Positions 30,332 to 31,861 of a DNA stretch of 64,000 nucleotides are shown here, piece after piece. The notes below the pieces were generated by a model. It was given only the letters and a program-made list of their open reading frames with translations. It did no database searches and was not told the DNA's origin. Position numbers and translations under genes: made by a program. The stretch comes from Escherichia coli 042 (GTDB lineage: Bacteria > Pseudomonadota > Gammaproteobacteria > Enterobacterales > Enterobacteriaceae). The DNA lies in assembly GCF_000027125.1 (NCBI RefSeq), contig NC_017626.1. One strand, given 5' to 3'. Positions within the stretch are counted from its first letter, which is position 1, and each line of letters starts with the position of its first letter.

Positions 30332-30399
30332 GTAGGCCTGATAAGACGCTATCAGCGTCGCATCAGGCATCCTGCTCAAATGCCGGATGCGGCGTAAAC
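30332..30399. repeat. REP/BIME cluster, second REP unit interrupted by the IS insertion
   Basis: gtaggcctgataagacgctatcagcgtcgcatcaggc and gccggatgcggcgtaaac; joining the flank at 31832 onward (gccttatcctgcctacaatgcggag) restores a complete REP unit. Confidence 0.65.
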
Positions 30400-30450
30400 T
30401 GAACTGCACCCCAAATGTTGGACATAATCTGACATCTGAAGGTGCAGTTT

Positions 30451-30945
30451 ATGAAACATTCATTTGAAGTAAAACTTGCCGCTGTAAATCATTACCTGGC
30501 TGGTCATGCAGGCATCATTTCTACGGCAAAACTCTTTCAACTTTCTCACACCAGCCTCTCACACTGGATTAATCTTTTTCTTCTTCACGGTCCTCGGGCA
30601 CTGGATTGCAGACACAAGCGTAGCTATTCTCCTGAAGATAAACTTTGCGTGGTTCTTTATGCTCTCGGGCATTCTGAGTCTCTACCCCGGGTAGCTGCCC
30701 GGTTTAACATTCCCAGCCACAACACGGTTAAAAACTGGATAAAAGGCTACCGCAAATCTGGTAATGAGGCCTTTATCAGGCGCAGGAAGGAGAAAAGCAT
30801 GACCCGTTCTGATGATACCCATGAAAACGAGGCAAACATGACGCCGGAAGAGATGAAGAATGAGCTGCGTTATCTTCGCGCAGAAAATGCATATCTGAAA
30901 GCCATGCAGGAGCATCTCCTGGAAAAAAAGCGCCAGGAGCTGGAG

Positions 30946-30972
<27 letters not shown>
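30451..30972 (+). CDS. IS3-family transposase OrfA (HTH DNA-binding / leucine zipper)
   Basis: 173-aa product MKHSFEVKLAAVNHY...; AAGGTG RBS upstream; C-terminal coiled coil. Confidence 0.85.
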
Positions 30973-31831
<859 letters not shown>

Positions 31832-31861
31832 AAACGCCTTATCCTGCCTACAATGCGGAGT

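Follow-up and report, generated by a model that had tools for sequence, protein, structure and literature searches.

The IS1397 element of Escherichia coli 042 very probably produces its fused OrfAB transposase through a -1 frameshift at an in-phase A_AAA_AAG heptamer (30924-30930), and not at the A6 run that follows it within the orfA/orfB overlap. All positions refer to the window, the 64,000-nt stretch of contig NC_017626.1 that was analysed as a whole. Slippage at the heptamer is the most likely event when signal anatomy, phase relative to orfA, conservation, a switch of coding constraint, and published and RefSeq annotation are taken together. IS1397 and its -1 frameshift motif are already catalogued, and the signal in the window is an ordinary, known feature. 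The coordinates of the relevant features are collected in Table 1.

Table 1. Features of the IS1397 copy, its insertion site and its frameshift region.
Feature	Position	Strand	Basis or remark
Target-site duplication AAAC, left copy, in REP loop (GCCGGATGCGGCGTAAAC, ending at the element boundary)	30396-30399		
Complete IS1397 copy (IS3 family, IS150 group), 1432 bp	30400-31831	+	Identity to annotated loci
Left terminal inverted repeat, TGAACTGCACCCCAAATGTTGGACA	30400-30424	+	25-nt pair with 31807-31831; TG start
orfA, 173 aa plus stop	30451-30972	+	HTH regulator/DNA-binding; Leu-rich, Lys-rich C-terminal tail
orfB frame, -1 relative to orfA	30864-31799	+	Translated within OrfAB
Ancestral heptamer position, reads G AAA GCC, motif lost	30897-30903	+	Colinear codon alignment, ~50 relatives plus IS150
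SD-like AGGAG, candidate stimulator	30908-30912	+	11 nt before heptamer
Slippery heptamer A_AAA_AAG, orfA phase	30924-30930	+	Published IS1397 motif; relatives; annotated joins
38-nt hairpin, candidate downstream stimulator	30934-30971	+	3-nt spacer
A6 run, OrfA codons AAA AAA (KKRK basic tail), OrfAB GAA AAA A..	30946-30951	+	Apical loop of hairpin
Right terminal inverted repeat, ending in GTTCAGTTCA	31807-31831	+	Pairs with 30400-30424; CA end
Target-site duplication AAAC, right copy (AAACGCCTTATCC, starting at the element boundary)	31832-31835		

The element and its insertion site

The element is IS1397, a member of the IS3 family. Over its full length it shares 99.8% nucleotide identity with loci annotated as IS1397 family transposase, and RefSeq labels the CDS in the window 'IS3-like element IS1397 family transposase, programmed frameshift', drawn as a two-piece join. 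At least a partial IS1397 match is present in 3496 of the 5426 complete E. coli genomes, with full-length copies in 1707. The terminal repeats are 25 nt long and 84% complementary, the left repeat opening with TGAACTGC at 30400 and the right one closing with CAGTTCA at 31831. Both ends are flanked by the 4-bp sequence AAAC, corresponding to the short target-site duplication (3-4 bp) expected of the IS3 family, and removal of 30400-31835 from the yiiM-cpxA spacer leaves a sequence that matches the intact spacer of other E. coli at 100%. Specifically, the insertion occupies the loop of a REP sequence, GCCGGATGCGGCGT-AAAC-GCCTTATCC, within the BIME between yiiM and cpxA. REP palindromic units are a known target of IS1397, as cited in PMC1525189. 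Another REP-like palindrome lies directly upstream of the insertion site, at 30336-30368.

The window copy shares with catalogued IS1397 the length of 1432 bp, the inverted repeats, insertion into a REP loop and the 4-bp duplication, while the two frameshift regions coincide in the A_AAA_AAG heptamer, the SD-like sequence and the 38-nt hairpin. The yiiM-cpxA spacer is one among many IS1397 insertion sites, and otherwise no substantive difference from the catalogued element is found. A few point substitutions separate the window copy from other IS1397 copies, all of them outside the frameshift window. A scan of the element for promoters and terminators returned nothing relevant. One copy in CFT073 (L088, NC_004431.1 115372-116715, beside mutT) is annotated as a 'frameshifted' pseudogene and not as 'programmed frameshift'; its frameshift window is intact, so the defect must lie elsewhere in that copy.

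Reading frames and the OrfAB fusion

The orfA gene extends from an ATG at 30451 to a stop at 30970-30972, and residues 9-146 of its product match the Pfam families HTH_28, HTH_Tnp_1 and HTH_29. In the -1 frame, the last upstream stop is TGA at 30861-30863, after which the frame stays open from 30864 to its own stop at 31797-31799, generating an overlap with orfA of 109 nt, or 35 codons. Joining the two frames as join(30451..30930, 30930..31799) yields an OrfAB protein of 449 aa, in which residues 210-443 match rve (PF00665, 75.7 bits), rve_2, rve_3 and HTH_21. This protein scores 387.6 bits against NF033516 (IS3 family transposase; cut-off 160), with a match that is continuous over residues 62-442. 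The window thus holds the features of the IS3 family: an HTH in OrfA, a DDE (rve) catalytic domain in OrfB, and overlapping open reading frames.

An earlier note on this DNA, made from the letters alone, had described an IS3-family element in which OrfB lies in the -1 frame relative to OrfA, is open from within the 3' end of OrfA and is fused to it by -1 frameshifting. The frame assignment is confirmed by the open stretch at 30864-31799, and the RefSeq designation as an IS1397 programmed frameshift agrees with the proposed fusion. The run gagAAAAAAcg is found exactly where the note had put it, and no stop interrupts the -1 frame between that run and 31077.

Phase and strength of the two A runs

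In the orfA frame the end of the overlap reads CTC CTG GAA AAA AAG CGC CAG GAG CTG GAG AAA AAA CGA AAG TCA TCC GGA GCC TGA. Besides the A6 run, which the earlier note had taken for the likely slippery sequence, it contains a second and longer run absent from that note, A7 followed by G at 30923-30930. According to PMC4066793, bacterial -1 sites consist of an X_XXY_YYZ heptamer or a Z_ZZN tetramer in the phase of the upstream frame. The A_AAA_AAG at 30924-30930 is the only in-phase X_XXY_YYZ heptamer within the 109-nt overlap. The A6 run is positioned in the orfA phase as GAG AAA AAA CGA, that is G_AAA_AAA_C; the stretch 30945-30951 forms no X_XXY_YYZ heptamer, and only the last four bases of the run provide a Z_ZZN tetramer, A_AAA. 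A similar point concerns the IS1 motif A_AAA_AAC ('A6C'), which is in phase, whereas gagAAAAAAcg in the window has the phase G_AAA_AAA_C and resembles it in letters only. Likeness in letters is therefore insufficient to identify a slippery run, and phase relative to the upstream reading frame decides.

Measured yields in E. coli differ between the two motif classes. A_AAA_AAG frameshifts at 0.29% unaided, at 4.3% next to the IS911 stimulators and at 39% next to the IS3 pseudoknot; for the A_AAA tetramer the values are 0.13% unaided and 0.26% with the pseudoknot. The IS1397 heptamer itself appears in a published catalogue, where Sharma et al. 2014 (PMC4066793, Table S4) list cluster A_AAA_AAG_5 as IS1397 orfA of the IS3 family, IS150 group, with -1 PRF graded as 'safely inferred', not demonstrated. 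Shuffled orders of the 35 overlap codons contain an in-phase AAA-AAA pair in 31% of cases and, in 6.7%, an in-phase A_AAA_AAG; an A6 run is thus unremarkable in a Lys-rich tail, because chance codon order produces the AAA-AAA pair so often. Across the whole window and both strands, AAAAAAG occurs 29 times, compared with 15 expected (sd 4) from dinucleotide-preserving shuffles.

Junction sequences in protein collections

The fusion formed through the heptamer (...LEKK-APGAGEK-TKVIR...) is an exact entry in NCBI as an IS1397 family transposase, and the fusion formed through the A6 run (...LEKK-RQELEKK-TKVIR...) has no entry among ~15 billion protein sequences. The two candidates are equally long and differ in a 7-residue linker, APGAGEK versus RQELEKK, and their NF033516 scores (387.6 versus 386.5 bits) do not allow the IS3 family HMM to tell the sites apart.

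KK-[AP]PGAGEK is present in 128 of 128 full-length relatives inspected. Among the NCBI IS1397 transposases inspected (P0016-P0135), the junction reads KK-PPGAG in 111 and KK-APGAG in 17. A join drawn at 30931, which re-reads C30931, reproduces the 'PP' form, whereas a tandem slip re-reading G30930 predicts A; the P in most RefSeq entries is a product of where the annotated join was placed, with the DNA unchanged. A G/C polymorphism at 30930, which would create an A6C heptamer, was considered as the source of the P/A difference and rejected, the DNA of the 'PP' loci being identical to that of the window. The annotated joins fall at 30930 or 30931, so either version puts the shift at the first run.

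Two short E. coli proteins of 57 aa (P0007 and P0012) read ...LEKK-APGAGEK-RKSSGA. To obtain this reading, the first run must be lengthened to A8 and the second shortened to A5, compensating changes of homopolymer length which could be real variants or sequencing errors.

Candidate stimulators around the heptamer

The heptamer is bracketed by an SD-like AGGAG on its upstream side, which may pair with 16S rRNA, and by the 38-nt hairpin on its downstream side, and both are candidate stimulators. The hairpin is built from an outer stem, CAGG/CCUG, and an inner stem, CUGGAGA/UC-AUCCGG, with -12.4 kcal/mol and z -3.43 when folded alone, and it was predicted independently of Table S8. Its size, spacer and first stem are those given in Table S8 (PMC4066793) for cluster A_AAA_AAG_5, where an SD-like element occurs in 100% of the 59 sequences and the conserved hairpin is 38 nt long, its spacer 3 nt and its first stem 4 bp. 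The fold is short, its spacer sits at the low end of the range (structures are expected ~4-10 nt downstream), and in 60-nt contexts it is no better than shuffles (z -0.8). The consensus fold of four related elements has a 6-pair stem of -1.6 kcal/mol with no covariation, in which only CAGG/CCUG recurs. In the common variant G30964A (CFT073), a U.G pair of the hairpin becomes U-A.

GGAG at 30936-30939 lies 7 nt before the first A of the A6 run, a permissive distance given the published range of 6-17 nt upstream, so the SD argument is not exclusive to the heptamer. Downstream, where the earlier note had suggested searching for a stem-loop, no structure better than random is predicted (z +1.2 for 44 nt and -0.6 for 66 nt); the predicted 38-nt hairpin follows the heptamer and holds the A6 run in its loop.

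An alternative hairpin at 30913-30942 (CAUCUCCUGG / CCAGGAGCUG; -11 kcal/mol, z -2.8) would enclose the heptamer within its loop. Because the downstream hairpin uses the 3' arm of this fold as well, only one of the two can form at a time, and the CFT073 substitution C30918T keeps the affected pair of this fold as G.U.

Signals with the same parts are described for IS911 and for E. coli dnaX. The dnaX gene carries a three-part signal of SD-like sequence, A_AAA_AAG and structure, at which the shift shortens the product, whereas the IS1397 shift lengthens it; dnaX and IS911 are different genes with different structures. The IS911 signal combines an SD-like sequence, A_AAA_AAG and a downstream structure as proposed for IS1397, with a 57-nt hairpin and a 6-nt spacer (Table S8, PMC4066793).

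Coding constraint in the closest relatives

An exhaustive search with OrfA identified three closer relatives, L094, L095 and L096, with OrfAB identities of 63%, 62% and 51%. Intermediate relatives did not emerge from a protein word search, whose matches were all IS1397 proteins of ~99% identity, and plasmid tblastn and genome-contig scans returned nothing between 99% and ~58% identity. L094 and IS1397 have identical left inverted repeats, and L095 and L096 have closely similar ones. In all three (3/3), G GAA AAA AAG CGC C is unchanged, at the homologous place and in phase, and the second run appears as GAG AAA AAA CAA, GAG AAA AAG CAA and GTG AAA AAA CAG.

The differences of these elements from IS1397 are distributed unevenly between the frames. 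Before the heptamer, 13 codons show 8 synonymous and 8 nonsynonymous differences in frame 0, compared with 2 and 17 in frame -1. Between the runs (5 codons), the corresponding numbers are 0 and 6 in frame 0, and 5 and 1 in frame -1. For the -1 frame, the comparison of upstream with between-run codons gives Fisher p = 0.002, on counts that are small and from three comparisons that share the IS1397 branch. At the protein level, the relatives keep APGAGEK at 7/7, 6/7 and 7/7 residues, while RQELEKK drifts, with 5/7 each. A switch of constraint to the -1 frame at the heptamer suggests that translation and selection act on this frame before the A6 run is reached. The pattern fits a slip at 30924-30930 and not at 30946-30951, and is supportive rather than conclusive. 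Among E. coli copies (CFT073, LH50-c and six further loci) both runs are invariant and do not discriminate between the sites.

Relocation of the cassette within the IS150 group

IS150 (L091) carries CTA AAA AAG within Y-L-K-K; a stem of 10 perfect base pairs, GCCUUAGCUC...GAGCUAAGGC, begins after a spacer of 6 nt and straddles the stop codon of orfA. IS150 and IS1397 are alike in heptamer sequence, group, the division into a 0-frame OrfA and a -1 OrfAB fusion, and the presence of a downstream hairpin. They differ in the hairpin itself, the IS150 stem reaching -17 kcal/mol and z -5.2 and the IS1397 hairpin being different and weaker, and in the upstream SD-like sequence, which is scored for IS1397 and not for IS150 (Table S8, PMC4066793). 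Cassette position was compared across L006-L081 and L091-L096. The IS150 arrangement recurs at the same codon in ~50 distinct relatives from Bacillales, Pseudomonas, Halomonas, Rhizobium and others; in these and in IS150 the downstream stem reads GCCUUAGYUCA...UGARCUAAGGC, and 35 of the 51 relatives checked have an arm with perfect complementarity over 7 nt or more.

IS1397 aligns gap-free to its IS150-group relatives, and E-N-A-Y is separated from the start of OrfB homology by 22.7 codons, as in most of them. At the ancestral position IS1397 reads CTG AAA GCC (Y-L-K-A, 30895-30903). The heptamer of IS1397 follows 9 codons (27 nt) later, where the others read GAA AAA GAA. The relocated site is common to L094-L096, which assigns the relocation to the IS1397 lineage and not to the window copy. 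A movement of the cassette by 27 nt downstream in this lineage, relative to other IS150-group elements, is well supported by these alignments. The accessible literature yielded no statement on a relocation of the cassette within the IS150 group.

In the same alignment the A6 run corresponds to the basic tail K-T-K-R-K of other OrfA proteins. The comparison with IS150 that the earlier note had proposed therefore matches its run to this tail and not to the heptamer, which lies elsewhere, an outcome that the note itself had named as refuting its choice of site. Collectively, the G_AAA_AAA phase, the published motif, the RefSeq joins and the relatives indicate that the note chose the right class of mechanism and very probably the wrong run, misplacing the site by ~20 nt.

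Two further elements, L065 (Pseudomonas endophytica, 489-571) and L069 (Pseudomonas saliphila, 2429-2526), have lost the ancestral heptamer, reading CTA AAG GAG, and their overlaps contain no in-phase X_XXY_YYZ. L065 has only G_AAA_AAA_C runs, one of them at the position of the IS1397 heptamer. Perhaps both elements are inactive, or they rely on weak tetramer sites.

Alternative routes to OrfAB

The heptamer could serve as the main site with the A6 run as a minor second site, giving two OrfAB isoforms with APGAGEK and RQELEKK linkers; this is unlikely, though it fares best among the alternatives. Equal length of the two fusions would permit it, the second run reads AAA AAA or AAA AAG throughout the four related elements, and tRNA-Lys(UUU) is unusually shifty in E. 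coli, where even C_AAG reached 0.93% with a pseudoknot. Dual coding, as KK in OrfA and EK[TA] in OrfAB, already accounts for conservation of the second run. Moreover, ribosomes arriving at the A6 run would just have melted the hairpin, no stimulatory structure lies 3' of the run, and the yield to be expected from it falls short of that of the heptamer by one to two orders of magnitude. A combined scenario, in which the IS1397 lineage swapped the Y-L-K-K cassette for a new one 27 nt downstream and also acquired secondary slippage on the A6 run with two OrfAB isoforms, is more doubtful still, and its secondary-site part is speculative.

A main slip on the A6 run itself, producing ...LEKKRQELEKK-TKVIR..., is improbable to a high degree. 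The run does lie inside the overlap where the -1 frame is open, it ends in an in-phase A_AAA tetramer of a class apparently used by some IS3-family members, GGAG precedes it at a suitable distance, and KK at its position is kept in the relatives. Against this, re-pairing in the P site would be from AAA to GAA in a run that offers no X_XXY_YYZ, the tetramer attains no more than 0.26% even with a strong pseudoknot, and here the run occupies the loop of the upstream heptamer's hairpin with no structure of its own downstream. In addition, the predicted fusion protein is missing from public collections, an in-phase AAA AAA pair is common in codon shuffles, and the -1 frame at 30931-30945 varies synonymously in the relatives, which would be unexpected if it were untranslated before the A6 run.

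Slippage of RNA polymerase on A7 (30923-30929) or A6, with an extra A in some transcripts leading to OrfAB, is about as improbable or slightly more so. In some insertion sequences transcriptional realignment does take place on homopolymeric A runs, and slippage at the RNA level would give the same KK-APGAG protein. Known cases, however, involve runs of ~9 or more bases, compared with which A7 and A6 are short, and the exact phase of the run, the G conserved behind it and the combination of SD-like sequence and hairpin are features of ribosomal, not transcriptional, slippage.

Least probable of all is the absence of recoding, with OrfB translated alone as a 240-aa transposase from the GTG-start reading frame that is present at 31077-31799, since IS3 transposase homology in the -1 frame begins by tblastn at 30951, far upstream of that GTG, the NF033516 match runs continuously across the fusion, HTH_21 (fusion residues 210-263) would lose its start, and the IS3 family is defined by OrfAB fusions.

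Proposed mechanism and implications

For the preferred site, the heptamer at 30924-30930, tRNA-Lys would occupy AAA in the P site and AAG in the A site, and both would slip back by one base onto AAA AAA. Translation would then resume at GCG (30930-30932) in the orfB frame, giving the predicted 449-aa product, ...LLEKK-APGAGEKTKVIR..., which brings the HTH domains of OrfA together with the DDE (rve) catalytic domain. Without slippage, ribosomes would complete the 173-aa OrfA. Upstream, AGGAG would pair with 16S rRNA, and downstream the 38-nt hairpin would act as stimulator. In OrfA the A6 run codes for the conserved basic tail, and in OrfAB for 'EKTK'. The two sites predict different OrfAB junction peptides, ...LLEKKAPGAGEKTKVIR for a slip at the heptamer and ...LLEKKRQELEKKTKVIR for a slip at the A6 run.

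For annotation, the slip site belongs at 30924-30930, with the junction falling between ...LEKK and APGAGEK.... The relocation offers a small example of a recoding signal moving inside an overlap while the length of the protein stays unchanged. How much OrfA, the regulator, is made relative to OrfAB, the transposase, is determined by the frameshift, as elsewhere in the IS3 family.
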